From positions 32,249 through 96,248 of the forward strand of contig CABYRH010000004.1 in assembly GCA_902521315.1 (NCBI GenBank): DNA of 64,000 nucleotides, written 5' to 3'. The position numbers and the translations under genes were made by a program. Positions 10,284 through 58,575 of the stretch are shown here, one piece after another. Every line of letters begins with the position of its first letter. Position 1 is the first letter of the stretch. Below the pieces are notes generated by a model. The model was given only the letters and a program-made list of their open reading frames with translations. It was not told the origin of the DNA and searched no databases. The stretch comes from an uncultured Alphaproteobacteria bacterium. Its GTDB lineage: Bacteria > Pseudomonadota > Alphaproteobacteria > HIMB59 > GCA-002718135.

Positions 10284-10288
10284 ACTTT

Positions 10289-10561: not shown

Positions 10562-10567
10562 AATATT

Positions 10568-27063: not shown

Positions 27064-27180
27064 AGTTATCCATAAAAAATCCTATTATTTATCAATAATC
27101 TCATTTTTTAATGCATTTTTTTATAAAGAAAATGTTATCAGTGGGATATCTATAATTCATATTTAAGGGGGATTTTTGGT

Positions 27181-28158: not shown

Positions 28159-28176
28159 ATACTAAAATAAATATTT

Positions 28177-28215
28177 GGTGAGACCAAAGATTAATAAATA
28201 ATTTATGGTCTCACC
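28177..28215 (+). promoter_or_regulatory. Intercistronic hairpin occluding the start of the ABC ATPase gene
   Basis: GGTGAGACC (28177-28185) is perfectly complementary to GGTCTCACC (28207-28215), with a 21-nt loop. The 3' arm begins at the G of ATG 28205-28207. Confidence 0.5.
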
Positions 28216-29725: not shown

Positions 29726-30846
29726 TGAGTAATATTGTAGTCGATAAATCAAAAGTTCCATGGTGGGTCTCTAATGTTATTGTTCCATTAGTAAACTTAA
29801 CATTAGCGTTATTAGTTTCAGGACTTTTTGTTTTTATTGCAGGTGAAAATCCAATAGAGGCTGTTAAGTTAATTATTTATGGATCATTTGGTTATATCCA
29901 AGGATTTGCTTATACACTTTATTACACAACAAATTTTATTTTTACTGGACTAGCTTTTGCTGTAGCCTTTCATTGTAGACTATTTAATATTGGGGGAGAA
30001 GGTCAAGCATACATAGGCGGGCTAGGTGTTTTTTTAGTAGCTATAAATTTAAGTTTTCTTCCTGTTCCAATCGTTTGGCTTTTAGCAATCTTTGGTGCAT
30101 TTTTATTTGGTGCAGCATGGGCTTACATTCCTGCTTATCTTCAATCAAAAAGAGGAAGTCATGTTGTTATTACAACAATAATGTTTAATTTTATTGCTTC
30201 ATCTTTAATGATTTTCTTACTTGTAGATGTGATTAGAGATACAAATCAAATGGCACCTCATACAGTGAAGCTACCAGAAGAAATCTGGTTACCAAGCTTT
30301 GAAGCATTCTCTGGAATTCTTGGAATAAAAATAAGATATTCACCACTTAACCTGACTTTCTTATTAGCAATTGCATCATTGTTCTTTGTTTGGTTTTTAG
30401 TTTGGAAAACTAAATGGGGTTATGAAATGCGAGCAGTAGGACACAATACTCAAGCAGCAATATATGCAGGCATATCACCTCATAAAAATATTATCATCGC
30501 GATGTGTATTTCTGGAGGTTTAGCAGGTCTACTTGGCGTCAATGAAATTCTTGGTGTAAGCCATAAAATTCAAGCAGGCTTTCCAGCAGGATATGGATTT
30601 ACAGGAATTGCAGTTGCACTAATGGGCAGAAATCATCCGATTGGTATTTTACCTGCAGCATTTTTATTTGGAATTTTATACCAAGGAGGTTCAGAAGTTA
30701 CATTCGAAATGCCAAACATAACTAGATACATGTTTGTTGCTGTTCAAGGATTAATAATATTATTTAGTGGTGCATTAGAAAATCTTTTTAGACCACAAAT
30801 AGAAAGCTTTTTTGTTAGAAGACTTAATAGAGAGGTAAATGCGTAA
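29725..30846 (+). CDS. ABC transporter permease (BMP-system, YufP/NupB-like)
   Basis: 373 aa and polytopic. ATG overlaps the upstream stop. Confidence 0.85.
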   Translation: MSNIVVDKSKVPWWVSNVIVPLVNLTLALLVSGLFVFIAGENPIEAVKLIIYGSFGYIQGFAYTLYYTTNFIFTGLAFAVAFHCRLFNIGGEGQAYIGGLGVFLVAINLSFLPVPIVWLLAIFGAFLFGAAWAYIPAYLQSKRGSHVVITTIMFNFIASSLMIFLLVDVIRDTNQMAPHTVKLPEEIWLPSFEAFSGILGIKIRYSPLNLTFLLAIASLFFVWFLVWKTKWGYEMRAVGHNTQAAIYAGISPHKNIIIAMCISGGLAGLLGVNEILGVSHKIQAGFPAGYGFTGIAVALMGRNHPIGILPAAFLFGILYQGGSEVTFEMPNITRYMFVAVQGLIILFSGALENLFRPQIESFFVRRLNREVNA

Positions 30847-31817
30847 TGGAATTTTTATCTGATATTGCTTCTTTAATTAATTCTACATTAAGAATATCTA
30901 CACCTTTAGTTTTTGCAGCAATGGCTGGTATATTTGCTGAAAGATCAGGGGTAATAGATTTTAGTTTAGAAGGTAAAATGCTTATGGCTGCATTTGTAGC
31001 AGCTGTTGGTTCTTACTATTTAGGTAACCCATGGTTAGGTTTATTATTAGCTATAATTGTATGTGTGTGTTTATCAATGTTACATGGATTTGCTTCGGTA
31101 ACGCACAAAGGCGATCAAGTAGTATCATGTGTTGCTATAAATATTTTAATTATTGGTTTAACAACTGCTTTAGCAGCTGCCTGGTTTGGGCAAGCAGGTC
31201 TGACGCCAACATTAAATGAAGATCAGCGTTTTTTAGAAATTCACCTTCCTTTTTCTGATGCACTGAGAGATATTCCGGTTATTGGAACACTTTATAGTGA
31301 TATATTAAGTGGTCATTACATTTTTGTTTATTTAGCTTACCTTTCTGTTCCACTAGTTTTTTGGATAGTATTTAAAACTAGTTTTGGTTTGCGTCTTAGA
31401 GCAGTTGGAGAAAATCCAAGTGCTGTTGATACTGCTGGAATCAATGTCTTTACTATGAGATATAAAGCGCTAGCAATCAATGGAGTGTTAATTGCTTTTG
31501 CGGGAGCTCATTTATCAACTGCTGTTAATGCAAATTTCTTCAGAGAAATGTCAGCAGGAAGAGGATACTTAGCACTAGCAGCAATGATCTTTGGAAAGTG
31601 GCATCCTAAAACAGCTTTAATTGCTTGCTTACTCTTTGGATTTACAGATGCACTTCAAATTAGATTGCAAGGAGTAGAATTACCTGCGATAGGTGAAATA
31701 CCAGTACAGTTAATTCAGGCAATACCATATGTATTAACAGTTGTTTTACTTGCTGGTTTTGTTGGTAAAGCGATAGCTCCTAACGCTATTGGACAACCTT
31801 ACATTAAAGAAAGATAA
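30846..31817 (+). CDS. ABC transporter permease (BMP-system, YufQ/NupC-like)
   Basis: 323 aa and polytopic. ATG overlaps the upstream stop. Confidence 0.85.
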   Translation: MEFLSDIASLINSTLRISTPLVFAAMAGIFAERSGVIDFSLEGKMLMAAFVAAVGSYYLGNPWLGLLLAIIVCVCLSMLHGFASVTHKGDQVVSCVAINILIIGLTTALAAAWFGQAGLTPTLNEDQRFLEIHLPFSDALRDIPVIGTLYSDILSGHYIFVYLAYLSVPLVFWIVFKTSFGLRLRAVGENPSAVDTAGINVFTMRYKALAINGVLIAFAGAHLSTAVNANFFREMSAGRGYLALAAMIFGKWHPKTALIACLLFGFTDALQIRLQGVELPAIGEIPVQLIQAIPYVLTVVLLAGFVGKAIAPNAIGQPYIKER

Positions 31818-32240: not shown

Positions 32241-34376
<2,136 letters not shown>

Positions 34377-34436: not shown

Positions 34437-34841
34437 CTATAACTCAATTTTGAAATTTTCAGGTCGCCACGTCGCAGGTGCAAGTTCAAAATCATCAAAA
34501 TCAAAAGCAGGTGCGACAGTGCATCCAATTAAACTGAAAGCACCAGAAGATCTCATAGCAAACCATGTGTTTGCTGTTACGGTGTAAATATAATTATGAT
34601 CTGACCCTAATGAAAAAACTTCATAATTAACTCCGTCATTCGATGTGAAAACTTCTAGAGGATCTCCTGAATAAAAATGTAATATTTCATTTTTAGTTAA
34701 TCGATGCCAATGTGATTTTTCGTTCCTTTTTAATAGGTAATAAATTTGACTAACATTATCGTTTTTAAAATTTTCAACATAATGCCCTCCTTCAGGATGA
34801 CTAATCATATTGAGTTTTTTTATTAAATTATCTGCTTCCAC
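34437..34841 (-). CDS. Cupin (DUF985 family)
   Basis: 'LIKKLNMISHPEGGHYVENF...SHWHRL' is the DUF985 cupin signature. Confidence 0.7.
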   Translation of the reverse strand: MEADNLIKKLNMISHPEGGHYVENFKNDNVSQIYYLLKRNEKSHWHRLTKNEILHFYSGDPLEVFTSNDGVNYEVFSLGSDHNYIYTVTANTWFAMRSSGAFSLIGCTVAPAFDFDDFELAPATWRPENFKIEL

Positions 34842-35432
34842 TTAGATTAAATGACCAAGTTTACTTTTTTTAGTAGAGATATATTTTTCATTATATTTAT
34901 TGGTGTCTGAGAAAATAGGAATTCTTTGATTTACTTTGATACCCATATCTTCAAGCGCTTTTATTTTTTTTGGATTATTGGTCATCAAATCTAATTCTTT
35001 GATTGCTAAATATTTTATCATTCCAGCAATATTTTCATATGTTCTCTCATCATCTTTGAAACCTAATTGATGATTAGCTTCAACGGTATCTAGTCCCTTG
35101 TCTTGTAAACTATATGCTTTAATTTTATTTGAAAGACCAATGCCCCTTCCTTCTTGTTGAAGATAAAAAATAACCCCTCTTCCATTTTGTGCAATTTGTT
35201 TTAATGATTCAGTTAGTTGGAATCTACAATCACATCTCATACTAAAAAAAGATTCCCCTGTAATACATTGAGAATGAATTCTTGATAAAACTGGCTCATC
35301 AGTAAGCAAGTCACCCATACATATTGCTAAATGATCTTTAGATTCATTTTCATCTGTAAAGGCATGTACAGTGAACTCTCCAATATCTGTTGGAAGTTTA
35401 CTAGTCTCAATAAACTTTAATTTGTCTGACAT
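34842..35432 (-). CDS. ribA: GTP cyclohydrolase II (monofunctional)
   Basis: Collinear with E. coli RibA over 196 aa. Zn ligands in 'HSQCITGESFFSMRCDC'. Also 'QQEGRGIGLSNKIKAYSLQD' and 'TVEANHQLGF'. Confidence 0.93.
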   Translation of the reverse strand: MSDKLKFIETSKLPTDIGEFTVHAFTDENESKDHLAICMGDLLTDEPVLSRIHSQCITGESFFSMRCDCRFQLTESLKQIAQNGRGVIFYLQQEGRGIGLSNKIKAYSLQDKGLDTVEANHQLGFKDDERTYENIAGMIKYLAIKELDLMTNNPKKIKALEDMGIKVNQRIPIFSDTNKYNEKYISTKKSKLGHLI

Positions 35433-35905
35433 TATAGTTTAGTAGGATTTGGGGCACCTTTGTATACTTCTTCAGGATCAAAAACTTTTTCTTTCTCTTC
35501 AAATTTAAGAACAACTTTAGAGCTAGAATTATCCAATGGAATACTTCTATAAAAACATGATCTATATCCTACATGACAGCTAGCACCACCTTTGACATCA
35601 ACCCTTAACCAAACACAATCTTGATCATCATCAATTCTTATTTCTTTTATCTTCTGCGTTAATCCACTTGTTTTACCCTTATGCCAAAGTGTATTTCTAC
35701 TTCTAGAAAAATAAACAGCTTCGCCCAAACTTATAGTTTTTTTAAAAGCTTCTTCATTCATATAACCTTGCATAAGTAGTTCACCAGATGAAAAATCTGT
35801 TGTTACAACGGGTATTAGACCATTTGAATCAAATTTCGGAGCCAGCTCATTTGACTCTTCAACTTGTTCTATTGATTTTCTTTTTTCAAATTCAATGTTA
35901 TTCAT
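35432..35905 (-). CDS. hisI: Phosphoribosyl-AMP cyclohydrolase
   Basis: 'GLIPVVTTD...[14 protein letters not shown]...[17 protein letters not shown]...[11 protein letters not shown]'. Confidence 0.9.
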
Positions 35906-40669: not shown

Positions 40670-41875
40670 GTGCTGAACAATAAAGAATATCTAAATAGAC
40701 TATATCAATCAGATAAACCTCTTATAATTTATAAAACTGATAAGGGTTATGATATCTATACTGATTTTTCTAGAAGAATTATTATTAATAAAAAAAATCT
40801 AAAATATTTTCTTAATATCCAATCAAAATCAAAAAAATCTAAGATTGAAGAATTGAATTGTTATGTTGGTTTCTTTGGTTATAAGCTTCTTTGTGAAAAT
40901 ATAGGAATAAAGTTTCCAAAACAGCAATCTAAAAATTTTCATAGCGGTATATTTTACAAACCACAAACTAAAATTAGTATTGGTAAAAAAATTGTAATCA
41001 AAAGCATTAAAGCCAATTTTAGAAATATAAGTATCAATACAAAAAAAAATTTACAGTTAAATAAAAAGTTTAATCTTAATTTATCTTTAAAGCAGTACTC
41101 TAAGATATTTAATGATTTCTCTAAAAATATTAAACAGGGAAAAACTTATCAAATTAAAATAGCTCAAACATATTCGAAAAAAGGTAATATCAATTCTATT
41201 GATCTTTTTTGGAAGTTAATGAAAATGAATGAATCACCTGAAAGTTTTCTTATCAGGGAAAAAGACTATAATATCGTAAGTTGTTCACCAGAGACACTCA
41301 TATTGAAAAAAGATAACACAATTAGAACTAAACCTATTGCTGGAACATTAAGAAAAACAAAGCAGTTAAATAAAAATAAAGCTCTCAAATTCTTTAGAAG
41401 AAATGAAAAAGAAACCAAAGAACATAATATGATTGTTGATATGGAAAGAAATGATCTGTCTAAAATTTGTAAAACAGGATCTGTAAAAATAGATAAACTA
41501 AAAAAGGTTGAGGAATATCGAGATCTTTTTCATTACGTTACGACAATCAAGGGAGTTATAAAAAATAAAATGAGTAACCATGATATAATTTCTTCTTTAA
41601 TGCCAGGCGGTTCAGTCATTGGTTGTCCAAAAATTAGTACTATTCAACTTCTAAACAGAAAAGAAAAATTTGACAGAAATATTTATACAGGCAGTTTTGG
41701 AATTATACATTCAAATGGTGATATGCGATTTAACATAATGATTAGAACACTACTTAATTTTAAAAATGATATTGAATTATCAGTTGCTAGTGGTGTGATC
41801 TTAGGGAGTACCGCAAAAAAAGAATATAATGAAAATTATATTAAAGCTAAATCACTTTTAGATCTATTTAACTAA
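40670..41875 (+). CDS. pabB: Aminodeoxychorismate synthase component I (PIAGT subclass)
   Basis: GTG start. Chorismate-binding core 'SPETLI...KPIAGT...MIVDMERNDL...GGSVIGCPK...RNIYTGSFG'. Call supported by the pabA/pabC/folP context. Confidence 0.8.
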   Translation: MLNNKEYLNRLYQSDKPLIIYKTDKGYDIYTDFSRRIIINKKNLKYFLNIQSKSKKSKIEELNCYVGFFGYKLLCENIGIKFPKQQSKNFHSGIFYKPQTKISIGKKIVIKSIKANFRNISINTKKNLQLNKKFNLNLSLKQYSKIFNDFSKNIKQGKTYQIKIAQTYSKKGNINSIDLFWKLMKMNESPESFLIREKDYNIVSCSPETLILKKDNTIRTKPIAGTLRKTKQLNKNKALKFFRRNEKETKEHNMIVDMERNDLSKICKTGSVKIDKLKKVEEYRDLFHYVTTIKGVIKNKMSNHDIISSLMPGGSVIGCPKISTIQLLNRKEKFDRNIYTGSFGIIHSNGDMRFNIMIRTLLNFKNDIELSVASGVILGSTAKKEYNENYIKAKSLLDLFN

Positions 41876-42432
41876 TGATTTATCTCATTGATCACGAAGA
41901 CTCATTCACATACAATTTAGCTCATCTACTAGATAGTATTGAGCCAACATTTGTTTCAAATTATTATGAGATAGATCAAATAAAACTAGATAAATCATCG
42001 ACCATAGTTCTTTCACCAGGCCCTGGTGAACCAAAAGATTATACATTAACAACTAAGATTTACAATAAATATAAAGGAAAGAAAAAAATATTAGGAATAT
42101 GTTTAGGTTTCCAACAAATAGTTTTTTGTGAAGGAGCTAAAATAGTTCAACAAAAAAATATTCTTCATGGTTATCAGAGTCATATTAAAGTTACTAACGA
42201 TAAATCAATTTTTAAAAAAAATTTTAATTTTTTAGGAGGTCGATATCATTCCTTAAAAATGGCTGAACCATTTGTTTCTCAATCAATGATAATTACAATG
42301 CGTTGTGTTAAAACAAATGTAGCAATGGCGGTTGAAGATGATATTAATAAAGTGTATGGATTACAGTTTCACCCAGATTCATTTTTAACTCCACATGGAA
42401 AATATCTTATTAAAAAAATCCTTTCACGCTAA
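41875..42432 (+). CDS. pabA: Aminodeoxychorismate synthase glutamine amidotransferase component
   Basis: 'LIDHEDSFTYNL', 'LSPGPGEP', nucleophile 'GICLGFQ' and 'LQFHPDS'. Confidence 0.85.
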   Translation: MIYLIDHEDSFTYNLAHLLDSIEPTFVSNYYEIDQIKLDKSSTIVLSPGPGEPKDYTLTTKIYNKYKGKKKILGICLGFQQIVFCEGAKIVQQKNILHGYQSHIKVTNDKSIFKKNFNFLGGRYHSLKMAEPFVSQSMIITMRCVKTNVAMAVEDDINKVYGLQFHPDSFLTPHGKYLIKKILSR

Positions 42433-43150
42433 GAATTTTAAATCACTTAAGTTCAATTCTCTTTGGGGATACAAGGGTATCTTTACAACTATTAGACTAT
42501 TTGGCAAAGAGCCAAATTTTATCTTAGTTGATAAGCATTTAAAAAAACTAAATAAAGATTTAAGATATTTTGGCATTGATACTAAAATTTCTAAAAATCT
42601 TTTAACTAATTTTTTAAATAAATATTCTAAAATTAAAAATTATGACCACCTATTAAGAATTGCAGTCACAAAAAAAATAATCTCATTATCTGTACGTAAA
42701 CGAAACAAAGATCATAAGCATTTTACTGCAGAATTTTTTAGATACCAGCGGTCTTTACCTAACTTCAAAAACTTACAGTACAAAAAAATAATTTCTTTAC
42801 AAAAAAAAATTAATTTACAAAAAGAAGAAATTCTTTTTTACTTCAACAATAAAATTTTAGAAGGCTCTACAACCAATTTAATTTTTGTAAATGGTAATAA
42901 ATTATTTATTCCAAAAAATTACTATTATTATGGAATTACTTTAGAATACTTAATTAAAAGTCTACCTTATAAAATTTATAGAACAGATATTAGTATTTCT
43001 AGTTTACATCAATTTAGTGAAATACTTTTAGTTGGTTCTGGTAAAGGTGTAGTTAGTATTTCTTTTATTAAACAATTTAATTGGTATAGGTCTTCAATGA
43101 AAATATATAATTTTTTATCAAAAAAATATTCAAAAATATTATCGAAATGA
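42395..43150 (+). CDS. pabC: Class IV aminotransferase-fold protein, probable aminodeoxychorismate lyase
   Basis: 'EGSTTNLIFVNGNKLFIPK' (class IV signature) and candidate PLP Lys in 'FKNLQY'. The start is uncertain (38-nt overlap with pabA). Confidence 0.55.
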   Translation: MENILLKKSFHAKNFKSLKFNSLWGYKGIFTTIRLFGKEPNFILVDKHLKKLNKDLRYFGIDTKISKNLLTNFLNKYSKIKNYDHLLRIAVTKKIISLSVRKRNKDHKHFTAEFFRYQRSLPNFKNLQYKKIISLQKKINLQKEEILFYFNNKILEGSTTNLIFVNGNKLFIPKNYYYYGITLEYLIKSLPYKIYRTDISISSLHQFSEILLVGSGKGVVSISFIKQFNWYRSSMKIYNFLSKKYSKILSK

Positions 43151-43965
43151 AATTAGGGAAATATAATTTTAAACTAACTAGTCCAACGGTAATGGGAATA
43201 TGCAATGTTACTCCTGACTCTTTTAGTGATGGTGGAAAGAGCTTTAAAAGTTCAGATGCACTAAAAAATATCAAAGAAATGATAAAAAATGGAGCAAGTA
43301 TTATTGATATTGGAGCAGAAAGTACAAGACCGGGTTCAGATCCATTAACACACAAAGAAGAAGTTAAAAGATTAGATCCGATATTAAAAAAATTGCCAAA
43401 AAATAAATTTGTCATATCAGTTGATACCAATAAAATTGAAACTCAAGAATATGCATTGAATATGGGAGCACATATTATAAATGATGTCTTCGGTGGTTCA
43501 GAAGATTTATTCTTTTTAACTAAAAAATTTAAAACCGGTTTAATTTTAATGCACACACCTGCACCACCGAAAACTATGCAAAAGAAAATACACTCATATA
43601 ATAATGTTGTACAAGATATTAAAAAAATATTTCTTCAGAAAATTAAACAATTAGAAAAAATAAAAATTCCTTCATCCAAAGTTTGGTTTGATCCAGGTAT
43701 TGGTTTTGGTAAAAATTTAAAACAAAATATAGAAATCATGCAAAAAATTAATCAGTTTAAGTTTAAAGGATATGGATTATTATTAGGATCATCTAGAAAA
43801 AGCTGGATCAACTTCATAGATAAAAGTGAAACAAATCAAAGATTGGGAGGATCAATCGCTTCTGCATTATATTGTTATCAAAAGGGAGTTGATATATTTA
43901 GAGTTCACGACATAAAAGAAACGTCTCAATCATTAAAAATTTTTGAAAAACTATGTTCAAAGTAG
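43147..43965 (+). CDS. folP: Dihydropteroate synthase
   Basis: 'VMGICNVTPDSFSDGG', 'IIDIGAESTRPG' and 'DPGIGFGK'. Confidence 0.93.
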   Translation: MKLGKYNFKLTSPTVMGICNVTPDSFSDGGKSFKSSDALKNIKEMIKNGASIIDIGAESTRPGSDPLTHKEEVKRLDPILKKLPKNKFVISVDTNKIETQEYALNMGAHIINDVFGGSEDLFFLTKKFKTGLILMHTPAPPKTMQKKIHSYNNVVQDIKKIFLQKIKQLEKIKIPSSKVWFDPGIGFGKNLKQNIEIMQKINQFKFKGYGLLLGSSRKSWINFIDKSETNQRLGGSIASALYCYQKGVDIFRVHDIKETSQSLKIFEKLCSK

Positions 43966-44297
43966 AAATTAAAAACTTATCCATCAGTGCAAACATAGGT
44001 ATCACTGCTCAAGAGCGAAAGAATAAACAGTTATTAGAGGTAACATTAGAATTTAGCTATCCTGTTAAAAACTCACTAGATTTAAATAATATAAATAACG
44101 TGAAGGATTATTCATCTATTACAAAATATTTAAAAACTTTCATAAAGGAATCTCAATCACATACTCTTGAGCATTTAATAATAAAAACATCCAATGCTCT
44201 TGAAAAAAAATTTAAAATAAAAAAAGTTAAAATTACAATTAATAAAACAGCTGTAGCAAAAAAATATGGAGCTGAATCTCTAAGTGTATCAAACTGA
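43953..44297 (+). CDS. folB: Dihydroneopterin aldolase
   Basis: 114 aa. 'IKNLSISANIGITAQERKNKQLLEVTLEF' matches the FolB N-terminal pattern. Confidence 0.75.
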   Translation: MFKVEIKNLSISANIGITAQERKNKQLLEVTLEFSYPVKNSLDLNNINNVKDYSSITKYLKTFIKESQSHTLEHLIIKTSNALEKKFKIKKVKITINKTAVAKKYGAESLSVSN

Positions 44298-44784
44298 AAC
44301 AATAATCGCACTTGGCTCAAATCTAGGTAATGCTATATTTAATTTACGCTGTGCCGTTAGAGAATTAAAAAATATTGGTAATATAAAAAAATTTGCAAAT
44401 ATTTATATTTCTTCTCCTTATGGATACAAATCGCAAAGTAATTTTTTTAATACTGCAATAAAACTATTAACCAACCAGCAGCCATTAGAATTAATAAATA
44501 ATATTTATGAAATTGAAAAAAAATTAAAAAAGAATAAAAAAATTATCAATGGTCCAAGAAACATTGATTTGGATATTATTTTTTTTGGCAAACAAATATT
44601 TAATAAAAAAAACTTAATAATTCCTCACCCAAGAGCAGCTGAAAGAGACTTCGTGTTATATCCAATACTTGATATTGATCCATTTTTCAGACATCCGCTT
44701 GAAAAAAAATCAATAAACGTATTGTCAAAAGAATTGCAAAATAAATATATTATTAAACGATTATCCTACCGAAATTTGATTTAA
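44284..44784 (+). CDS. folK: 6-hydroxymethyl-7,8-dihydropterin pyrophosphokinase
   Basis: 'IIALGSNLGN', 'GPRNIDLDIIFF' and 'LIIPHPRAAERDFVLYPI'. Confidence 0.88.
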   Translation: MYQTETIIALGSNLGNAIFNLRCAVRELKNIGNIKKFANIYISSPYGYKSQSNFFNTAIKLLTNQQPLELINNIYEIEKKLKKNKKIINGPRNIDLDIIFFGKQIFNKKNLIIPHPRAAERDFVLYPILDIDPFFRHPLEKKSINVLSKELQNKYIIKRLSYRNLI

Positions 44785-45414
44785 AAAATCTTTGAGTTTT
44801 GATTTAGAAATTAAATTTCTTTGATTTTTTAGGCTTCTAGAAATATCTAATCCAAAAGGTGTTATTTGTTTTAGAATGTTGGAAACATTTTTTTTGTCTA
44901 TACCGCCACCAATATAAACTGGAATATTTTTACTTTTTATAAACTGTATTTGTTTAATACTTTTTCTCAATGAATACTTTTTAATACTCTTTTTCCTATA
45001 AACATTCATATCAAAATAAATAACATCAACAATTTTTCTAATTGATTCAATGTATTTTTTATCAAAATTTTCCGGATTAATTGCAATACCAATTTTTAAT
45101 CTTCTAAATATTTTTTTTATTTTTAATAAATCTTTTTTGGGAAAATGATATGAACATGAAATTGTCTTTGGTTTTGTAAAATCTATTTGCTCTATTAGCT
45201 TGTCTAAAGATACATACCGAGTCAGAAGTACTGATTCTATCTTATAATTTTTACACTCTTTAATTAATGATTGTATTTTTTTGTCACTAACTGTGTTTGG
45301 TCCATTCAAATTTTTACTTGCAAAACCCAATGATTTTATTTTATTTTTATGTGCTACTTCAACAGATTTTACATTTGTTATGCCACAAATTTTTAGAGGT
45401 ATATTTTTCATCAA
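44761..45414 (-). CDS. Divergent TrpF-family (phosphoribosylanthranilate isomerase-like) protein
   Basis: N-terminal 'LKICGIT' (catalytic Cys) and C-terminal 'PVYIGGGIDKKNV...FGLDISRSL'. The central region is non-canonical. Its 3' end overlaps folK by 24 nt. Confidence 0.65.
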   Translation of the reverse strand: MMKNIPLKICGITNVKSVEVAHKNKIKSLGFASKNLNGPNTVSDKKIQSLIKECKNYKIESVLLTRYVSLDKLIEQIDFTKPKTISCSYHFPKKDLLKIKKIFRRLKIGIAINPENFDKKYIESIRKIVDVIYFDMNVYRKKSIKKYSLRKSIKQIQFIKSKNIPVYIGGGIDKKNVSNILKQITPFGLDISRSLKNQRNLISKSKLKDFLNQISVG

Positions 45415-45462: not shown

Positions 45463-46899
45463 ATGTCATTAAATTTTTATAGACGAGTAGCGTTTGGCCT
45501 GTCGCCAAATGAAAAACCAGATAAAGATCCTCTTAATTGGGCAATAAATCAATTAGATACCATACCCGATCTCTTGTGGCCTGGAACAATCCCAACAGAA
45601 AAAGATTTAAGAAAAAAATATGGCGAATGGGTGTACGGAGATAGAGAAGTTTTAAGAAAAAAATTTAAAAATGATAAACATGCGTATAGAAAAGCAAAAG
45701 ATGAATTAAGAATAAAAACTGGTGAAAGATATTTTGAATTAAATGAACATGCTATTCGTCATTTTCAGACAAAGTATTCCAAGCAACCTGTTTTCGAGCG
45801 TTTCTGGCTTTTTTGGGGAAATCATTTTGCAATAAGTGAAAAAGATTTCCTAGCAGAGTTTAGTACCGGACCCTATCAACGTGAAATTATTAGACCTAAC
45901 ATGGTTAAAACTTTTGAAGACATGGTTCAGTCAGTAACGACTTCATGGTGTATGATTCATCACCTTGATAATTCAGAATCTTTTGGTCCCAATTCTAAAA
46001 AAGGAATGGAGTGGGGAGAAACCATAAACGAAAATCATGCAAGAGAATTATTAGAGTTACATACAGTATCTCCAAATGCTGGATACACACAGGAAGATGT
46101 AATTCAGTTAGCCTATATCATGACAGGTTGGGCTCACAAATGGGATAGAAAAAACTTAGAAACCGGTGATATATGGTTTGATCAAGAAATGCATCAAAAA
46201 GGAGATAAAATTGTTTTAGGAGTTAAATATAAAAATGACGCAAAAAGAGAACTTGCTAAAGTAATTCATGATTTGGCAACACACCCAATCTGCATCAAAT
46301 TTGTTTCAACAAAATTATGTAGGCATTTTATTACAGATGAACCAACAGACGAAATGATAAACCCAGTATTAGAAGCATGGAACAAATCCGATGGAAACTT
46401 AATTGAAATTCACAAAGCAGTTATAACGCAAGCTTACAAATATAATGAGAATACACATAAATTTCATCCACCTGAAATATGGTTAATGCAATTATCTAGA
46501 ATGTTTGATTTAAATATTCCGCTTTCTTTTGAAAAAATGAATTATACTTTTAAGTCAAAGCCAAATAATAGGCAAAGACAATTATCATGGATACTTAGAG
46601 AAATAGGTCATTCGCCTTATCGTGCCAAACAACCTAATGGTTGGAGTGATTTGGAGGTAGATTGGGTATCACCAGAATTATTATTACGCCGCTTTTGGTT
46701 TGCTTCAGTTGAACTTCCAATGCTTGTTAAATCTGGAAACAGATCCCATGGTTTTATTTTATCTTGTCTTAAAAATAATTTTGAAGATCATGAAAATATG
46801 GCATCACTTATTGATAATTTAAAATTTGGCACATCAGATTATGATTTAGGTCAAAAGTATGGAGTCATTTGTAATTTGCCAGGAGTATTAAAAATATGA
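45463..46899 (+). CDS. DUF1800 family protein
   Basis: 'FWLFWGNHFAIS' and 'ELLELHTVSPNAGYTQEDVIQLAYIMTGW' are DUF1800 signatures. Confidence 0.7.
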   Translation: MSLNFYRRVAFGLSPNEKPDKDPLNWAINQLDTIPDLLWPGTIPTEKDLRKKYGEWVYGDREVLRKKFKNDKHAYRKAKDELRIKTGERYFELNEHAIRHFQTKYSKQPVFERFWLFWGNHFAISEKDFLAEFSTGPYQREIIRPNMVKTFEDMVQSVTTSWCMIHHLDNSESFGPNSKKGMEWGETINENHARELLELHTVSPNAGYTQEDVIQLAYIMTGWAHKWDRKNLETGDIWFDQEMHQKGDKIVLGVKYKNDAKRELAKVIHDLATHPICIKFVSTKLCRHFITDEPTDEMINPVLEAWNKSDGNLIEIHKAVITQAYKYNENTHKFHPPEIWLMQLSRMFDLNIPLSFEKMNYTFKSKPNNRQRQLSWILREIGHSPYRAKQPNGWSDLEVDWVSPELLLRRFWFASVELPMLVKSGNRSHGFILSCLKNNFEDHENMASLIDNLKFGTSDYDLGQKYGVICNLPGVLKI

Positions 46900-48047
46900 A
46901 CTGCACAAGAAGAAATTTTTTAATTGGAGGATCAACAACATTGTTTCTTTCTGGATATTTTCCAAAAATAAGTTTTGCTTCAATGCAGAAAAAAAATCTA
47001 ATTATTATATCACTTCGCGGAGGAATGGATGGTTTAACAGCTATTCCTGTTATTGGAGATAAACGTCTAAAAAAATTGAGAAAAAAACTCATTCTGGAAG
47101 ATGTTCTTAATCTAAACAGTGACTTTGGTCTTCACCCTAAATTAGAAATTTTCCATAAACTCTGGCAAAAAAATCAAGCGGCATTTGTTCATGCCACAAA
47201 CATTCCTTACACAGGCAGATCACATTTTGATGGGCAAAATTTAATGGAAACTGGAGCACACATTCCATACAAAGAAAAAACAGGATGGCTTGGTAGGGGA
47301 TTACTAGCTTCAAATATTATAGGAAAAGGTTTGGCAATATCTTTACCAATGCCACTTTTATTAAGAGGTGTGCCACAGAATAATAATTTCTTCCCATCAC
47401 CAGATTTTGTTGAAACAAAGTTAATAGATCAAATTTATAATGAATTTAAAGGTGAACATAACGAGCTAATAAAATCTACACTTGATACAATTAGACAAAG
47501 ACCATTGTCTATGCAAATAGCTACTGACTCTGATGATAGAAAAAAACTTGCTCTTGAAGCTGCTAAACAATTAAAAGATCAAAGTGGTCCTCGAGTTGCT
47601 GTATTTGATTTAGATGGTTTTGATACCCATGCTGCTCAAGGAGGTGTTGATGGAGCGCATGCTGATGAACTAGAAGAAGTAAATAAGATTGTTACTATTC
47701 TACATGAAAATCTTGGCCAAGCATTTGATAATACACTAATTCTTACTCTTACTGAATTTGGCCGAACTATAAAACAAAATGGAGGCTATGGAACTGAGCA
47801 CGGATATGGAAGTGCAATACTAATGGCTGGAGGCTTGTTAAAAAAATCTCAAGTTTATACAGATTGGCCTGGACTAAAAAAGAAAGAATTGTTTGAGGGA
47901 AGAGATCTAAATTCGACTATTGACTCCAGGGCTGTCTATAATTCTGCAATGTCAATTTGTTTTAACCAAGATCCAGAATTTTTACGTAAAGAAGTTTTTT
48001 GGGGAGATGAACTTCCTGATTTGTCTCAAGAATTGTTTAAGATTTAG
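46896..48047 (+). CDS. DUF1501 family protein (sulfatase/phosphatase-like fold, Tat signal)
   Basis: Twin-arginine 'TRRNFLIGG' and 'LTEFGRTIKQNGGYGTEHGYGS'. ATGA overlap with the DUF1800 gene. Confidence 0.75.
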   Translation: MNCTRRNFLIGGSTTLFLSGYFPKISFASMQKKNLIIISLRGGMDGLTAIPVIGDKRLKKLRKKLILEDVLNLNSDFGLHPKLEIFHKLWQKNQAAFVHATNIPYTGRSHFDGQNLMETGAHIPYKEKTGWLGRGLLASNIIGKGLAISLPMPLLLRGVPQNNNFFPSPDFVETKLIDQIYNEFKGEHNELIKSTLDTIRQRPLSMQIATDSDDRKKLALEAAKQLKDQSGPRVAVFDLDGFDTHAAQGGVDGAHADELEEVNKIVTILHENLGQAFDNTLILTLTEFGRTIKQNGGYGTEHGYGSAILMAGGLLKKSQVYTDWPGLKKKELFEGRDLNSTIDSRAVYNSAMSICFNQDPEFLRKEVFWGDELPDLSQELFKI

Positions 48048-48073: not shown

Positions 48074-48490
48074 ATGTTAAACAAGAATATGGTTTCAGAA
48101 AATTTTGATACTTTATTTAAGGCTGCAAAAAAAGTTAGAGAGCAAGCTCATGTGCCATATTCAAATTTTAAAGTAGGAGCAGCTTTTCTAACAGAAGATA
48201 GTAAAATTATTACTGGCTGTAATGTTGAAAATGCTGCCTATCCTCAATCCCAGTGTGCCGAAGCAACAGCAATTGGAAATATGATATCTAATGGAAACAA
48301 AAAAATTTTAGAAGTTGTGGTTATAGGTTCAGGTGAATTATTATGCTCACCCTGTGGTGGTTGTAGACAGAGGTTAAGAGAATTTGCTACTTTAGATACT
48401 AAGATTCATATGTGTAATGAAAATGGTCATATGAAAACATCTACGCTCGAAGAATTACTTCCAGATTCTTTTGGCCCAGAGAATCTTTAA
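48074..48490 (+). CDS. cdd: Cytidine deaminase
   Basis: Zinc motifs 'CAEATAIGNM' and 'SPCGGCRQ'. Confidence 0.9.
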   Translation: MLNKNMVSENFDTLFKAAKKVREQAHVPYSNFKVGAAFLTEDSKIITGCNVENAAYPQSQCAEATAIGNMISNGNKKILEVVVIGSGELLCSPCGGCRQRLREFATLDTKIHMCNENGHMKTSTLEELLPDSFGPENL

Positions 48491-49320
48491 TGTTACCTTC
48501 GGCCAAAAAATTTTTAGACATAACAAATAACACTTCACCCGATATTGCTGTAATTTTAGGAAGTGGACTAACTAATTTTTTTGAAGAAAAAGATATTCAA
48601 GAATCAATTTCATATGAACAGTTAGCTGATTTTCCACAGCCAACTGTAAAAGGTCACGCAGGTAAATTAGTTTTAGGAAAAATAAATACTTTAAATGTTG
48701 TTTGTATGTATGGAAGATCCCATATTTATGAAGGACACAATCCTCAAAACTTAGCTTCACCCATAAGAGTATTAAAGGACATTGGGTGCAAGTTATTAGT
48801 TGTTACAAATGCAGCAGGTAGTTTAGATGAAGCTATGCCAGCTGGTAGTCTAATGGCAATTAAAGATCATATTAACTGGAGTGGTTTCAATCCACTTATT
48901 GGACCCAATGCTGAAGAGTATGGCCCTCGTTTTCATGATATGAGTGATGGGTATCATAAGTTTTATAGAGATCAGTTAATGCAAGTCGCTAAAAAAATAG
49001 ATCAAAAAATTTATGAAGGTATTTATTGTATGTACTCAGGACCAAACTTTGAAACACCTGCTGAAATTAATGCCTTAAAAGTAATAGGTGGAAATGCTGT
49101 TGGAATGTCTACAGTACCAGAAGTTTTAGTTGCTAATCATTGCGGACTTCCTGTTATTGGTATCAGTGTAATCACCAACTTAGCTGCTGGTATGAATAAA
49201 ACAAAATTAAGTCATCAAGAAACTTTAGAGAATGCAAGTTTAGCAGAGAACAATGTTTTAAATTTAATTAAACAATTTATTCAAGAAGTTCAATTCGATG
49301 ATACCTCAAGAGATAATTAG
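48490..49320 (+). CDS. punA: Purine nucleoside phosphorylase (trimeric PunA/XapA type)
   Basis: 'ILGSGL', 'HAGKLVLG', 'GRSHIYEGH' and 'AVGMSTVPEV'. Confidence 0.88.
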   Translation: MLPSAKKFLDITNNTSPDIAVILGSGLTNFFEEKDIQESISYEQLADFPQPTVKGHAGKLVLGKINTLNVVCMYGRSHIYEGHNPQNLASPIRVLKDIGCKLLVVTNAAGSLDEAMPAGSLMAIKDHINWSGFNPLIGPNAEEYGPRFHDMSDGYHKFYRDQLMQVAKKIDQKIYEGIYCMYSGPNFETPAEINALKVIGGNAVGMSTVPEVLVANHCGLPVIGISVITNLAAGMNKTKLSHQETLENASLAENNVLNLIKQFIQEVQFDDTSRDN

Positions 49321-50608
49321 AAAAAAAAGAGATAACCAAGATCTTTCAAAAGAAGATATTAACTTTTTTGTAGACGGTTTAACAAATGGATCTTTTTCAG
49401 ATGCACAAATTGCAGCAATGAGCATGGCAATATTTGCAAATGGAATGACGCCTGAAGAAACTGTTTGTTTGACTGAGGCGATGACAAACTCTGGTGATAC
49501 ACTTAATTGGTCTGAGATTGTGGATCCTGAGCTGGTTTGTGATAAGCACTCAACTGGTGGTGTTGGAGACAAGACGAGCGTTATATTAGCACCAATACTT
49601 GCAGCTTGTGGACTGTATGTACCTATGATTTCAGGTAGGGGTTTGGGTCATACAGGCGGTACCCTAGATAAATTTGATTCAATACCTGGGTACAATACAA
49701 AGCCTGATTTAGAGACTTTTAAAAAAGTTGTAAAAGACGTTGGTTGTGCAATTATCGGTCAAACCTCTAACTTAGCACCAGCTGATAAAAAATTATATTC
49801 AATAAGGGATATTGTAGGTACAGTAGAATCTTTACCCTTAATAACATCATCTATTCTTTCAAAAAAAATTGCAAGCGGTCTTTCATCTTTGGTACTTGAT
49901 GTAAAAGTTGGTAATGGATCTTTTAATAGCACTATTGATGTAGCAAGAGATTTATCCAACTCCTTAGTAAGAGTCGCTAAAGGAGCAGGTTTATATTGCG
50001 AAGCTATATTAACAGATATGAATCAGGTCTTAGGTAAAAGTGCTGGTCATACACTAGAGATATTAGAATGCATAAAATATATTAAAAATGATTTTAAAGA
50101 TCACCGATTAGAAAAGATCACTAATGAATTAATATCTTCGCTATTAGTAAACATTTATAAAATTTCGAAAGAAGAGGCTTATAATAAAATTAATACGGTT
50201 ATTAATAATGGATTAGCTGCAGAAAAATTTGAAATGATGGTTGCGGCCTTGGGTGGACCAAAAAATATTTTATCATCTTATGAAAAAGATTTAATAAATA
50301 CTTCAGTTCGAAAAGATGTATTTTCTAGTGAACAAGGCTGGATAGAAAAAATTCATACCAGAGAATTAGGCCTTATACTTATTGAACTAGGAGGCGGAAG
50401 AAAACAAGTTACCGATAAAATAGATTACGGAGTTGGATATGATAATGTACTCAATATTGGTGATGAAGTGAATTCCTCAACTCCTTTATTAAGTTTATAC
50501 TCATATAAAAATATAGATGATAATTTAATAAATAAAATACAAAGTTGTTTCATCATTTCAGATAAAAAAACTCACAAACTATCTGAAATATTTGAAACCA
50601 TAAACTAA
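49298..50608 (+). CDS. deoA: Thymidine (pyrimidine-nucleoside) phosphorylase
   Basis: 'CDKHSTGGVGDKTS' and 'SGRGLGHTGGTLDK'. Confidence 0.92.
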   Translation: MIPQEIIRKKRDNQDLSKEDINFFVDGLTNGSFSDAQIAAMSMAIFANGMTPEETVCLTEAMTNSGDTLNWSEIVDPELVCDKHSTGGVGDKTSVILAPILAACGLYVPMISGRGLGHTGGTLDKFDSIPGYNTKPDLETFKKVVKDVGCAIIGQTSNLAPADKKLYSIRDIVGTVESLPLITSSILSKKIASGLSSLVLDVKVGNGSFNSTIDVARDLSNSLVRVAKGAGLYCEAILTDMNQVLGKSAGHTLEILECIKYIKNDFKDHRLEKITNELISSLLVNIYKISKEEAYNKINTVINNGLAAEKFEMMVAALGGPKNILSSYEKDLINTSVRKDVFSSEQGWIEKIHTRELGLILIELGGGRKQVTDKIDYGVGYDNVLNIGDEVNSSTPLLSLYSYKNIDDNLINKIQSCFIISDKKTHKLSEIFETIN

Positions 50609-51264
50609 TGAGTACCCAAACTGAAATTAATGAAGCACTTGTTCAATATTTAAAAACCGTTGGTTACAGAGAAGATAAAATAATTAGTGAACTAGAAAAT
50701 GAAACTTTAAAACTTGGCAGTGTTTCACAAATGCAGATTGCAAAAGAACAAGGTCAGTTTTTAGAAATGATAACTAAAATTTCTAATGCTAAAAATTGTT
50801 TAGAAATTGGAAGATTTACAGGGATGAGCACCTTATTTTTGGCTAGAGGTCTACCTGAATCAGGAAAAATTGTAACTGTTGATAATTCAGATGAATTTTT
50901 ACCCTTAGCAAAAAAATATTGGGAATTAGATAATATAAGTTCAAAAATTGAATCGATTATTGGAGATGGTGTTGAGGTAATGCAAAGCATGATAGATCGT
51001 CAACAAAGTTATGATTTAATTTTTATAGATGCTGACAAGAATAATTATCCAAATTATTACGAACTGTCGCTAAACCTACTAGTTTCTAATGGAATAATAA
51101 TTATTGATAATATGCTTTGGCACGGTGATGTTGCTGACGAAACTAAACAAGACTCTCAAACAAAAACTATCCGCGATTTAAATTTAAAAATACAAAATGA
51201 CACAAGAGTGGAATTCTCTCTTCTCCCATTATCTGATGGATTATCGTTTATAAGAAAAAAATAA
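50608..51264 (+). CDS. Class I SAM-dependent O-methyltransferase (family 3, caffeoyl-CoA OMT/YrrM-like)
   Basis: 'CLEIGRFTGMSTLFLA', 'IFIDADKNNYPNYY' and 'IIIDNMLWHGDV'. Confidence 0.8.
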   Translation: MSTQTEINEALVQYLKTVGYREDKIISELENETLKLGSVSQMQIAKEQGQFLEMITKISNAKNCLEIGRFTGMSTLFLARGLPESGKIVTVDNSDEFLPLAKKYWELDNISSKIESIIGDGVEVMQSMIDRQQSYDLIFIDADKNNYPNYYELSLNLLVSNGIIIIDNMLWHGDVADETKQDSQTKTIRDLNLKIQNDTRVEFSLLPLSDGLSFIRKK

Positions 51265-56633: not shown

Positions 56634-57614
56634 ATGAATATTTTTAATTCAGTCAAAAAAGCAGAAATCCATGTTCATTTAGAGGCAACTATAACGCCAA
56701 CTTTATGTAAAAAATTTGCCAAACGAAACAACTATGAAATAGCTGAAGAAATGTTTGGTTCAAAGTACGCATACCAATGGGATGATTTTTATGATTTTAT
56801 AAAAAAATATGACATTGTTACTTCTGTCATACATACACCAGAAGATTATTTTGAATTAACGTATGAATATCTAAAAGATTGTGCAGCTAACAATGTTCTT
56901 TATGTCGAAGCGATGATTTCCTCAACTCATGCTAAAGAAAAAGGCATGACTTACCATTCATTTATTGAAGGAGTCTATGAAGCTTCTAAAAAAGCTGAAG
57001 AGGATTTTGGAATTGTTTCACGTTATATAATGAATGGGATCAGACATTTAGGACCAGAGTCAGTAAAAGGAACTGCGGAGGAAGTTTTAAATAATCCTCA
57101 TCCTTGTTTAGTTGGTTTTGGTTTGGCTGGGGATGAGCTTCATTTTCCTCCAAACTTATTTGTTGAAACATTTGATATGTTAAAAAAAGAAAACTTTCCA
57201 ATTACGGTTCATGCAGGTGAATGGGATGGTCCTGTAAATATAAGGAATGCTATTAACCTTCTGCATCCAACAAGATTAGGCCACGGAGTTCGATCAATAG
57301 AGGATCCTGATTTAGTCAAAGAAATAATTGATAAAGATATTATTCTAGAAACTTGTCCAACAAGTAATATTGCAACTAAAATTTATAAAGATTATATAGA
57401 TCATCCTGTGAAAACATTATTTGATCAAGGGGTAAAAGTAACAGTCAATTCTGATGATCCTCCTTTTTTTAATGCAACGATAAACGGTGAATATAAAGTC
57501 ATGGAAGATTTAGGCTTAAATGAAAAAGAGCTAACTTCACTTACTCATAACGCAATAAAATATTCTTTTTGCGATGATGAAAATAAAAATAAATTATTAG
57601 CTAAATTAAACTAG
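56634..57614 (+). CDS. add: Adenosine deaminase
   Basis: 'EIHVHLEATI', 'TVHAGE', 'RLGHG' and 'VNSDDPPFF'. Confidence 0.9.
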   Translation: MNIFNSVKKAEIHVHLEATITPTLCKKFAKRNNYEIAEEMFGSKYAYQWDDFYDFIKKYDIVTSVIHTPEDYFELTYEYLKDCAANNVLYVEAMISSTHAKEKGMTYHSFIEGVYEASKKAEEDFGIVSRYIMNGIRHLGPESVKGTAEEVLNNPHPCLVGFGLAGDELHFPPNLFVETFDMLKKENFPITVHAGEWDGPVNIRNAINLLHPTRLGHGVRSIEDPDLVKEIIDKDIILETCPTSNIATKIYKDYIDHPVKTLFDQGVKVTVNSDDPPFFNATINGEYKVMEDLGLNEKELTSLTHNAIKYSFCDDENKNKLLAKLN

Positions 57615-58575
57615 ATAATTTTACTAAAGGTCTTGCACCATAATGAGAAATAATTTCTGCGGCAGCAATTGATGCATAATTACCGCATTCATCCATTGCT
57701 TTACCTTTAGAATAACCAAATAAAAAACCAGCTGCAAATAAATCTCCAGCTCCAGTTGTATCTACAACTTTTTCTACTTTTTTTGCAGCAATTTCAGTGA
57801 TGTCATTACCAGAAACAATAACTGATCCACTACTTCCTTTAGTAATAGCAGCAATTATATTTAATGATTTTGCATACTCTAGACCTTCTTCAAAACTTTC
57901 TGTTTGTGCCATTGCTTTGATTTCATCTTCGTTAGCAAAAAGAATATCAACATTCTCAGTTATTAATTCTTTAAAAGAATCTCTGTGTCTATCAACACAA
58001 AAAAGATCAGATAAAGTAAATGCAATTTTTTGATTATCAGCTTTGCAAATATCCACCATTTTTTTCATAGCCTTTTTTGCATTCTCATTGTCCCACAAGT
58101 AGCCTTCCAAATATGCAATTTTATGATTTTTAATATCATCCTCTTTTATATCTTCAGGACCTATTAATGTTCCAGCACCAAGAAAAGTACACATTGTTCT
58201 AGTTCCATCTTCTTCAACAAAAATTGTACAACATCCAGTTGAAATATCAGGAGATGTAAATCCCAATGGAAATTTTAGTCCTTCCCGGATCATATCTTTT
58301 TGAAGGTATACTCCAATTTCATCATTTTTAATTTTTCCAATAAAACTTCCATTACCGCCAAAAGAGGTAATACCAAACATGGAGTTACCAAGGGAACCTC
58401 CACCAGCCATCTCTCTGATGGAATAACTTTCATGCAAATTATTTTTTAAATTTTCATCAATAAGATTCATAGAATCTCTATTAATTTCATGTTTTTCAAT
58501 TTCACTTTGATTGGAAGGAATTATGGCATCTACCATAGCATTTCCAATTCCAACTACGTCTAATTTATCACTCAT
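57601..58575 (-). CDS. PfkB-family kinase, probable adenosine kinase
   Basis: 'VVDTTGAGDLFAAGFLFG' (PfkB signature 2) and an N-terminal 'GGSLGNS' GG switch. Confidence 0.8.
   Translation of the reverse strand: MSDKLDVVGIGNAMVDAIIPSNQSEIEKHEINRDSMNLIDENLKNNLHESYSIREMAGGGSLGNSMFGITSFGGNGSFIGKIKNDEIGVYLQKDMIREGLKFPLGFTSPDISTGCCTIFVEEDGTRTMCTFLGAGTLIGPEDIKEDDIKNHKIAYLEGYLWDNENAKKAMKKMVDICKADNQKIAFTLSDLFCVDRHRDSFKELITENVDILFANEDEIKAMAQTESFEEGLEYAKSLNIIAAITKGSSGSVIVSGNDITEIAAKKVEKVVDTTGAGDLFAAGFLFGYSKGKAMDECGNYASIAAAEIISHYGARPLVKLSSLI

Follow-up and report, generated by a model that had tools for sequence, protein, structure and literature searches.

In Chlamydia trachomatis, TrpF and RibA together replace FolE and FolQ in folate synthesis (Adams et al., mBio 2014, PMC4161248), a precedent correctly cited in an earlier reading of the DNA studied here (hereafter the original prediction). 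The chlamydial TrpF is a promiscuous housekeeping enzyme, encoded outside the folate cluster, which keeps its phosphoribosylanthranilate (PRA) isomerase activity. Here we analyse a stretch of 64,000 nucleotides from an uncultured alphaproteobacterium (contig CABYRH010000004.1, positions 32,249 to 96,248; 'the window'), in which a TrpF-like gene converges on folK, the last of six genes for the synthesis of p-aminobenzoate (pABA) and dihydropteroate. Like the chlamydial enzyme, its product belongs to PF00697, and the same Amadori rearrangement, leading from the product of GTP cyclohydrolase II to dihydroneopterin monophosphate, is proposed for it. In both cases no FolE or FolQ gene stands alongside folB, folK and folP, although the absence of folE is documented for Chlamydia and is seen here for the loci only. 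Unlike the chlamydial TrpF, the window protein is deeply diverged (23.5 bits against PF00697), has its anthranilate-side motifs replaced and is locked to folK; the host is an abundant, free-living marine bacterium with a portable cassette, whereas Chlamydia is an obligate intracellular organism. What is new with respect to Chlamydia is a specialised, deeply diverged family member, locked to folK and carried by a portable cassette in a free-living ocean host; the proposed mechanism itself was already known.

Several other systems invite comparison. FolE (GTP cyclohydrolase IA) and FolE2 (IB) are functional analogues, in that they supply the first committed pterin intermediate. However, they have unrelated folds, and in their case one enzyme performs the ring opening, the Amadori rearrangement and the ring closure, to give a triphosphate product that requires FolQ. 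PriA and HisA (dual-substrate or histidine-pathway enzymes) are (beta/alpha)8 Amadori isomerases of phosphoribosylamines, an illustration of how easily such chemistry can shift to other ribosylamines, but they form a different family (PF00977) to which the TrpF-like protein has no significant similarity (the window's own hisA, at 8786-9526, scores 202 bits). Pathway holes filled by a recruited enzyme and revealed by clustering with fol genes are also illustrated by PTPS-III in place of FolB, by FolC2, and by CT610 in place of PabABC (PMC1971073, PMC4161248); these belong to other families and replace other steps, and none is a dedicated TrpF paralog. We found no paper linking a TrpF-like gene to folate outside Chlamydia in the literature searched, and no published description of such a protein in the searchable literature.

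The original prediction described six plus-strand genes at 40670-44784, identified as pabB, pabA, a pabC-like gene, folP, folB and folK. The open reading frame (ORF) map agrees exactly with the overlaps proposed between them (pabB/pabA 1, pabA/pabC-like 38, pabC-like/folP 4, folP/folB 13 and folB/folK 14 nucleotides), and Pfam and NCBIfam scores bear out the identities (Table 1). Together these six canonical genes span all the steps from chorismate and dihydroneopterin to dihydropteroate, and only the FolE and FolQ steps are without a gene in the cassette; as predicted, Pfam and NCBIfam show neither enzyme in the cluster. The closing gene is indeed convergent, the minus-strand ORF 44761-45414 covering the last 24 nucleotides of folK at its 3' end. 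Its start had to be corrected: since all database homologs are 216 amino acids long, translation almost certainly begins at the ATG at 45411 (216 amino acids), and the TTG at 45414 is an unlikely start. Because the gene converges with the fol genes, it lies outside their transcript, and the term 'folate operon' used previously is an overstatement. The term 'folE-less' applies to the cluster, where no folE was found, rather than to the genome.

How tight is the association of the seventh gene with the other six? A scan of a genome collection returned 79 loci of the window's own lineage ('type B'), nearly all from tropical-ocean single-cell genomes. Among loci extending past the 3' end of the TrpF-like gene, folK is convergent with it in 78 of 79, the 3' overlap being 24 nucleotides in 70 loci, 35-36 in 5 and 44 in 3. 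The single exception may be L077, which has only a truncated TrpF-like match. Taken alone this linkage is weak evidence, because the entire type B region from ribA to DUF1501 is syntenic. Within type B, the folK junction is also kept where other genes take the place of DUF1800/DUF1501 on the opposite flank.

More informative is a second lineage ('type C'). It was reached through P0204, the only distant member of the family, and is represented by four independent single amplified genome (SAG) contigs, CACNEB01, CACEJK01, CACMIW01 and CABXWD01. Each contains pabB-pabA-pabC-folP-folB-folK in the same order and orientation, with the TrpF-like gene again convergent on folK (44-nucleotide overlap). 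The flanks are unrelated to those of the window, with katG-MIP-aminotransferase upstream of the TrpF-like gene and SBP, Fur and ZnuABC genes beyond pabB. Identities between the two lineages are 51% for PabB, 57% for PabA, 38% for PabC, 53% for FolP, 37.5% for FolB, 36% for FolK and 38% for the TrpF-like protein, which has thus diverged about as far as the other six. Since type C keeps the same seven genes at 36-57% identity with both flanks changed, the tie of the TrpF-like gene to the pab-fol genes exceeds conserved synteny: what has survived both the divergence and the move to new surroundings is the set of seven genes as a whole. The GC content of the module is 0.26-0.27 in types B and C alike, against 0.31-0.34 in the flanks. 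The dN/dS of the TrpF-like gene is 0.09-0.12, in the same range as folK, pabA and pabB.

Alternatively, the TrpF-like gene could be hitch-hiking at the edge of a recombining island, its overlapping 3' end making it costly to part from folK, and its function could be unrelated to folate, possibly connected to katG and oxidative stress. The folK/TrpF-like junction is a recombination breakpoint in some genomes (L048/L049), the flank beyond the TrpF-like gene is variable, and the type C gene starts 4 nucleotides downstream of katG on the same strand. However, hitch-hiking gives no account of the retention of the gene at 36-57% identity, with both flanks changed and under strong purifying selection, and the link to katG is not conserved, since in the window 10 kb separate the two genes, with the module in between. 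We consider this explanation very improbable.

Which organisms carry the cassette? One of the loci (L041) comes from the SAG AG-337-I02, whose proteins are 89% (TrpF-like), 96% (ThrS) and 97% (RibA) identical to those of the window. AG-337-I02 gives its name to a GTDB genus in the order HIMB59, that is the AEGEAN-169 group, formerly SAR11 subclade V (PMC8692485). On the basis of this close protein identity, the window belongs to the AEGEAN-169/HIMB59 group and not to SAR11 proper. Few homologs carry organism names, and these are labelled Pelagibacteraceae or Alphaproteobacteria. In a 2026 survey, at least one third of HIMB59-order genomes were without FolK or FolP (PMC13408713), which makes the fol genes accessory within the order.

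By profile search, the TrpF-like protein is a marginal member of its family. It scores 23.5 bits against PF00697 (PRAI), where the gathering score is 22.7, and the family representatives P0196 and P0204 score 19.9 (below gathering) and 31.1 bits, respectively. Against the NCBIfam TrpF equivalogs it reaches 20-40 bits, below every one of the cutoffs (170-230). The fold is much clearer: an AlphaFold2 model is a confident (beta/alpha)8 barrel (pLDDT 88.7, pTM 0.86), and in a Foldseek search of the PDB, ranks 1 to 11 are all TrpF (E-values 8e-12 to 3e-8, TM-scores 0.70-0.83). The gene assigned originally to the TrpF family thus encodes a far-diverged relative of TrpF, with borderline Pfam scores, NCBIfam scores under the cutoffs and a model that has the TrpF fold. 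A chance antisense reading frame is ruled out by conservation, dN/dS and the confident fold.

An alignment was made of the family, nine representatives of canonical TrpF and the TrpF domain of E. coli MG1655. Lys7, Cys9, Gly29, Asp134, Gly169, Gly170 and Asp189 are invariant between the family and the canonical enzymes. Following established TrpF enzymology, we take Cys9 (strand 1) to be the general base and Asp134 (strand 6) the general acid, and the motifs 'IGGGI[DN]' (GGG168-170 in the TrpF-like protein) and 'GLD[IV]SR' to form the phosphate-binding site. The 'LKICGIT' and 'PVYIGGGI...GLDISRSL' stretches singled out in the original prediction are both present. The fold, the catalytic residues and the phosphate site are shared with canonical TrpFs of known structure (PDB 1NSJ/1LBM, 4AAJ and the C-terminal domain of 1PII), which have a (beta/alpha)8 barrel with a Cys after strand 1, an Asp after strand 6, and GG-x-N and D-x-S phosphate-binding elements.

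The substrate side is different. The canonical 'SPR' is replaced in the family by an invariant 'GPNT' (GPNT37-40), and the Arg lost in this exchange is the one that pairs with the anthranilate carboxylate in T. maritima TrpF. The canonical 'QLHG' of strand 4 becomes 'ISCS' or 'VCIS', and the GG[ST]GxxxDW loop after strand 6 gives way to an 'N-[VI]-Y-[RKHD]' segment that is eight residues shorter and forms a beta-hairpin in the model; the window protein carries Y132-x-D-M-N-V-Y138. The remark that the middle of the protein lacks the canonical 'GGTGxxFDW' is therefore accurate, as no GG[ST]GxxxDW motif exists. GPNT and Y-x-D-[LM]-N-[VI]-Y are carried by all ten members of the family; no genuine canonical representative has them, the one seeming counterexample being a chimeric ORF, whereas G[GS][TS]G is found in 52 of 70 full-length representatives outside the family and in none of the ten within it. 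Amadori machinery (Cys9, Asp134 and the phosphate site) kept while anthranilate-side features are lost is the pattern that a 'dedicated folate TrpF' would predict, and to this extent the alignment supports the idea.

This family is narrow. Among 1.84 billion representative proteins, it amounts to two full-length clusters at 50% identity, and the next full-length matches beyond it score at most 70 bits and have ordinary PRAI signatures. In neighbour-joining bootstraps, each of the two types forms a clade of its own (type B in 197 and type C in 200 of 200 replicates), and the two are joined in 153. They share about 35% identity with one another (38% in the comparison of the modules) and 20-22% with canonical TrpFs. 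Outside the family, the nearest relative is P0237, from a 2-kb contig on which it adjoins a ChaC gene. Homologs are exclusively marine, and the exact window protein occurs on about 1000 contigs, one of them 1,260,408 bp long; the family was not found in viral contigs. The family forms a long-branched clade, and the TrpF-like protein is best explained as a specialised descendant of PRA isomerase.

Could it simply be the housekeeping PRA isomerase of an AT-rich, streamlined genome, fast-diverged and placed beside the fol genes by accident or through the paralogy of PabB/PabA with TrpE/TrpG? It is a formal member of PF00697 with both catalytic residues, the annotation of its homologs at JGI reads 'phosphoribosylanthranilate isomerase', no other trpF was found for the lineage among the candidates traced, and the window has no trp genes to compare. 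Nevertheless, all the anthranilate-side motifs, including the conserved Arg of 'SPR', are replaced by other residues that are themselves invariant. Genome-wide fast evolution also fails to explain the divergence, because HisA, HisF and RibA of the same window score normally (202, 285 and 208 bits, against 23.5 for the TrpF-like protein). The gene moves with the fol/pab genes into a different genomic context, and a housekeeping gene would be unexpected in an accessory block, as one third or more of the genomes of the order HIMB59 reportedly have no FolK or FolP, the signature enzymes of the cassette (PMC13408713). These observations make a housekeeping role improbable.

The genomic context of canonical trpF points the same way. 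Other alphaproteobacteria keep trpF in a pyrF-trpF-trpB-trpA-accD-folC arrangement (L231), and the canonical representatives P0578 and P0259 lie in pyrF-trpF-trpB-trpA and trpC-trpF contexts, respectively. The TrpF-like gene, in contrast, has no trp-operon context: it had been described as not being beside trpB/trpA, and in more than 80 loci we find no trp gene closer than 10 kb to it, nor is there one anywhere in the window. We considered both representatives as the canonical trpF of the window's lineage and rejected them. P0259, despite its trpC-trpF context, is from an unrelated AT-rich organism, and P0578, in pyrF-trpF-trpB-trpA-accD-folC, is from a rare organism (clusters of 1-4 members).

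What reaction might a specialised TrpF-like enzyme catalyse in a folate cassette? We see a slightly better than even chance that it is a dedicated Amadori isomerase acting on the product of GTP cyclohydrolase II, in a bypass of FolE and FolQ like that of Chlamydia. In such a route RibA would open GTP to 2,5-diamino-6-ribosylamino-4(3H)-pyrimidinone 5'-phosphate. The TrpF-like enzyme, using the retained Cys as general base and the retained Asp as general acid, would then carry out the Amadori rearrangement of this N-ribosylamine to its 1-deoxyribulosyl form, which would cyclise to 7,8-dihydroneopterin monophosphate. After removal of the phosphate by an unspecific phosphatase, FolB, FolK and FolP, with pABA from PabBAC, would complete dihydropteroate. 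The pair of RibA and the TrpF-like enzyme would thereby replace FolE and make FolQ unnecessary.

Among the reactions one could propose, an isomerase for the RibA product appears the most economical because of the gap in the pathway, the co-inheritance of the seven genes, the family precedent in Chlamydia, the kept catalytic pair and the rebuilt aglycone pocket. An accessory cassette that shifts context also fits a bypass, because a block giving folate prototrophy to an auxotroph must carry its own pterin entry. The fold, the kept catalytic and phosphate residues, the lost substrate-side motifs, the purifying selection and the strict co-inheritance with six genes are all observed; which substrate is used, that RibA provides it and that these genomes have no folE are inferred. 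As for the dedicated 'folate TrpF' bypass of the original prediction, linkage to pab-fol genes in two lineages and retention of the Amadori residues support it; the prediction as a whole is supported in part.

The presumed substrate supplier is the ribA of the window, which had been described as stand-alone and of E. coli type, and which is monofunctional (Table 1). By eye, its sequence keeps the equivalents of the Zn-binding cysteines, Tyr105 and Arg128 of E. coli RibA. The gene overlaps hisI by 1 nucleotide in a hemB-hisI-ribA-cupin_5 order, and lies about 9 kb from the module, a position conserved in the listed type B loci that reach so far. The Cupin_5 (DUF985) gene (34437-34841) begins right after the ribA stop codon and is also found beside ribA in the divergent loci L066 and L067.

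The bypass presupposes that GTP cyclohydrolase I is missing. We found no FolE in the 64-kb window by tblastn and motif search (FolE2 was not searched for), none in the 79 type B loci, of about 20 kb each, and none within 10 kb in the type C gene tables. No tabulation of folE for the HIMB59 order was found in the accessible literature; the SEED table of de Crecy-Lagard et al. (2007) reports FolE1 in Pelagibacter ubique HTCC1062, with dispersed FolB, FolK and FolP (PMC1971073). A metagenome scan with an AT-biased FolE motif yielded 120 real FolE loci, in which the sole low-GC group of alphaproteobacterial type is SAR11 and not the window's lineage; members of this group are named 'GTP cyclohydrolase I FolE [Candidatus Pelagibacter]'. 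One candidate for a FolE of the window's lineage (L162) was rejected, its neighbours being named Candidatus Pelagibacter. Two further SAR11-like FolE proteins of about 270 amino acids (P0345 and P0346) have an extra domain annotated PF14489 (QueF-like); they come from short metagenome contigs and may be fusions or gene-calling artefacts.

The location of folE in SAR11 offers a parallel. There, folE is the divergent neighbour of hisI in all 19 loci and in further contigs (DUF2237-hisI, then folE-ADH_zinc-LysR; L208-L222, L092-L162). The window's HisI is 55-67% identical to the SAR11 proteins, and the copies of the type B loci are 80-99% identical to it. The slot adjacent to hisI is thus occupied by GTP cyclohydrolase I in SAR11 and by GTP cyclohydrolase II here, which is suggestive but no proof that folE is absent.

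Several points weigh against an isomerase of the RibA product. The TrpF-like gene is convergent with the fol genes, hence transcribed separately from them. Only about 20 kb around it was read per genome, so that the absence of folE and folE2 is a premise and not a result, and a folE elsewhere in the window's lineage is plausible because SAR11 relatives carry one. The presence of ribA in the window is weak evidence, as any riboflavin-producing bacterium has this gene, and in type C no ribA lies within 10 kb of the module. No second, canonical trpF was found for the window's lineage, both traced candidates being from other organisms. Finally, the chlamydial enzyme is an otherwise ordinary TrpF, so the remodelled pocket is without experimental precedent, and its fit for the diaminopyrimidinone over some other ribosylamine is conjecture.

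The protein could instead have another role linked to folate, pterins or pABA, as an isomerase or related enzyme on a different phosphorylated substrate and with a FolE encoded elsewhere. Its substrate might be, for instance, a phosphate of neopterin or monapterin, a pterin precursor that is damaged or being salvaged, or a ribosylated aminobenzoate. Strict linkage to the module implies a connection to folate but does not name the reaction, and the substrate-side residues are so altered that homology cannot give the substrate. The pterin branch itself may not be of the textbook kind: FolB does not reach the cutoff of the folB equivalog and does about as well on the NCBIfam model for dihydroneopterin triphosphate epimerase, so that it can be assigned to its family only, aldolase and epimerase not being separable. 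The folE kept by SAR11 relatives is also in agreement with such a role. On the other hand, no such reaction is known for any TrpF-family protein, and the retained Cys/Asp pair, together with the 5'-phosphate site, suggests a 5-phosphoribosylamine as the substrate of an Amadori reaction. The sole intermediate of this kind experimentally tied to folate is the RibA product (PMC4161248), and every canonical step except those of FolE and FolQ already has a gene in the module. We regard a different folate-linked reaction as rather unlikely.

A bolder form of the RibA-product reading can be entertained, to which we give a little less than an even chance. The seven genes would then constitute a self-sufficient, laterally exchangeable 'folate prototrophy cassette' of streamlined marine bacteria, whose seventh gene would define a new dedicated family without PRA isomerase activity; carriers would have no GTP cyclohydrolase I at all and would draw their pterin wholly from the riboflavin pathway, and their relatives would be folate auxotrophs.

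If the isomerase does act on the RibA product, the bypass that an ordinary TrpF performs on the side in the decaying genome of Chlamydia would have a counterpart in an enzyme evolved for the task, and this in one of the more abundant groups of free-living surface-ocean bacteria. It would be a new functional subfamily, now annotated as 'hypothetical' or 'phosphoribosylanthranilate isomerase', and would couple folate supply to the flux of riboflavin precursors. Genome-based calls of vitamin B9 auxotrophy in marine plankton would need revisiting, since rules that demand folE would wrongly score carriers as auxotrophs. The protein would also show how nature has redirected a (beta/alpha)8 isomerase towards another ribosylamine, with clear residue changes (GPNT for SPR, a hairpin for the GGTG loop). 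Should the genomes carry folE after all, the conserved seventh gene of the cassette would still be an unassigned enzyme linked to folate and worth characterising.

Table 1. Genes of the pab-fol cassette, the TrpF-like gene and context genes in the window (positions are those of the window)
Gene	Position	Strand	Product	Family match	Score (bits)	NCBIfam match	Remark
pabB	40670-41875	+	Aminodeoxychorismate synthase component I	PF00425 (Chorismate_bind)	247		Short form, without the TrpE N-terminal domain
pabA	41875-42432	+	Glutamine amidotransferase component II	PF00117 (GATase)	121	TIGR00566 trpG_papA, 121.8 bits, over cutoff	
pabC-like	42395-43150	+	Class IV aminotransferase-fold protein, presumed aminodeoxychorismate lyase	PF01063 (Aminotran_4)	81	PabC equivalogs weak	
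folP	43147-43965	+	Dihydropteroate synthase	PF00809 (Pterin_bind)	240	TIGR01496 DHPS, 285 bits, over cutoff	
folB	43953-44297	+	Dihydroneopterin aldolase-family protein	PF02152	65	TIGR00526 FolB domain, 51 bits, over cutoff	
folK	44284-44784	+	Hydroxymethyldihydropterin pyrophosphokinase	PF01288 (HPPK)	111	TIGR01498, 127 bits, over cutoff	
TrpF-like	44761-45411	-	(beta/alpha)8-barrel isomerase, 216 amino acids	PF00697	23.5		Candidate isomerase for the GTP cyclohydrolase II product
ribA	34842-35432	-	Monofunctional GTP cyclohydrolase II	PF00925	208	NF001591, 268 bits	Proposed substrate supplier
hisI	35432-35905	-	Phosphoribosyl-AMP cyclohydrolase	PF01502	107		Context marker
katG	32241-34376	-	Catalase-peroxidase, 711-amino-acid ORF				Context; member of a 90%-identity cluster named catalase/peroxidase HPI

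Some assignments in Table 1 call for comment. The gene pabB, the first of the module in both lineages, has PabB-clade2 and pabB as its best NCBIfam models, and scores under both equivalog cutoffs. The pabC-like gene encodes one of the least conserved proteins of the module (38% identity between lineages). A Pfam scan of the window ORFs, which excluded four small ones at 61.3-63.8 kb, detected no Nudix domain, and Rfam gave no match in the window to a riboswitch or any other RNA family. In a promoter and terminator scan of the window, promoter-like sites were fewer than in shuffled controls.

The module has a mosaic history. Synonymous divergence of its genes reaches 1-2.7, against 0.3-0.7 for the flanking cysS, thrS, ribA and hisI (L041, L046, L048, L049). 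In L048/L049, a recombination breakpoint separates folK from the TrpF-like gene: identity is 81% for the TrpF-like protein (dS 1.05) but 95-98% for the proteins from FolB to PabB. Beyond the TrpF-like gene, a divergent DUF1800/DUF1501 pair (45463-48047) begins 51 nucleotides from its start codon; this flank is a variable region, since some loci that are syntenic in other respects do not have the pair (among them L046-L049, L054, L057 and L064).

In type C, the katG that lies 4 nucleotides upstream of the TrpF-like gene on the same strand (L225-L227 and L229; at about 7844-10663 in L225) belongs to PF00141 and encodes a homolog with 62% identity to that of the window, whose own katG is 10 kb off on the opposite side of the module. 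Two loci, both from ERZ1742197, have a TrpF-like gene that appears split (L228, 2582-3343; L233, 453-887). Its N-terminal half continues, after katG, into an ORF with a NUDIX domain, and the C-terminal half follows an ABC-transporter-like stretch, ahead of an intact fol module. We rejected these copies as cases of natural gene loss: they have 2-3x coverage and come from one sample, and an insertion or an assembly chimera is possible.

Two ORFs of the window, at 12285-13613 (442 amino acids) and 25922-26407 (161 amino acids), have no Pfam match at E <= 1e-4. The his operon at 7024-10918 reads hisB-hisH-GNAT-hisA-hisF-hisE-HIT, with a GNAT acetyltransferase gene between hisH and hisA; hisE is part of this operon, apart from hisI, which lies 25 kb away beside ribA. 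Genes for nucleoside and nucleobase salvage are concentrated around the module (26443-31817, 48074-51264 and 56634-58575), and include upp, a PnrA-type ABC transporter, cytidine deaminase, purine nucleoside phosphorylase, thymidine phosphorylase, adenosine deaminase and a PfkB-family kinase.

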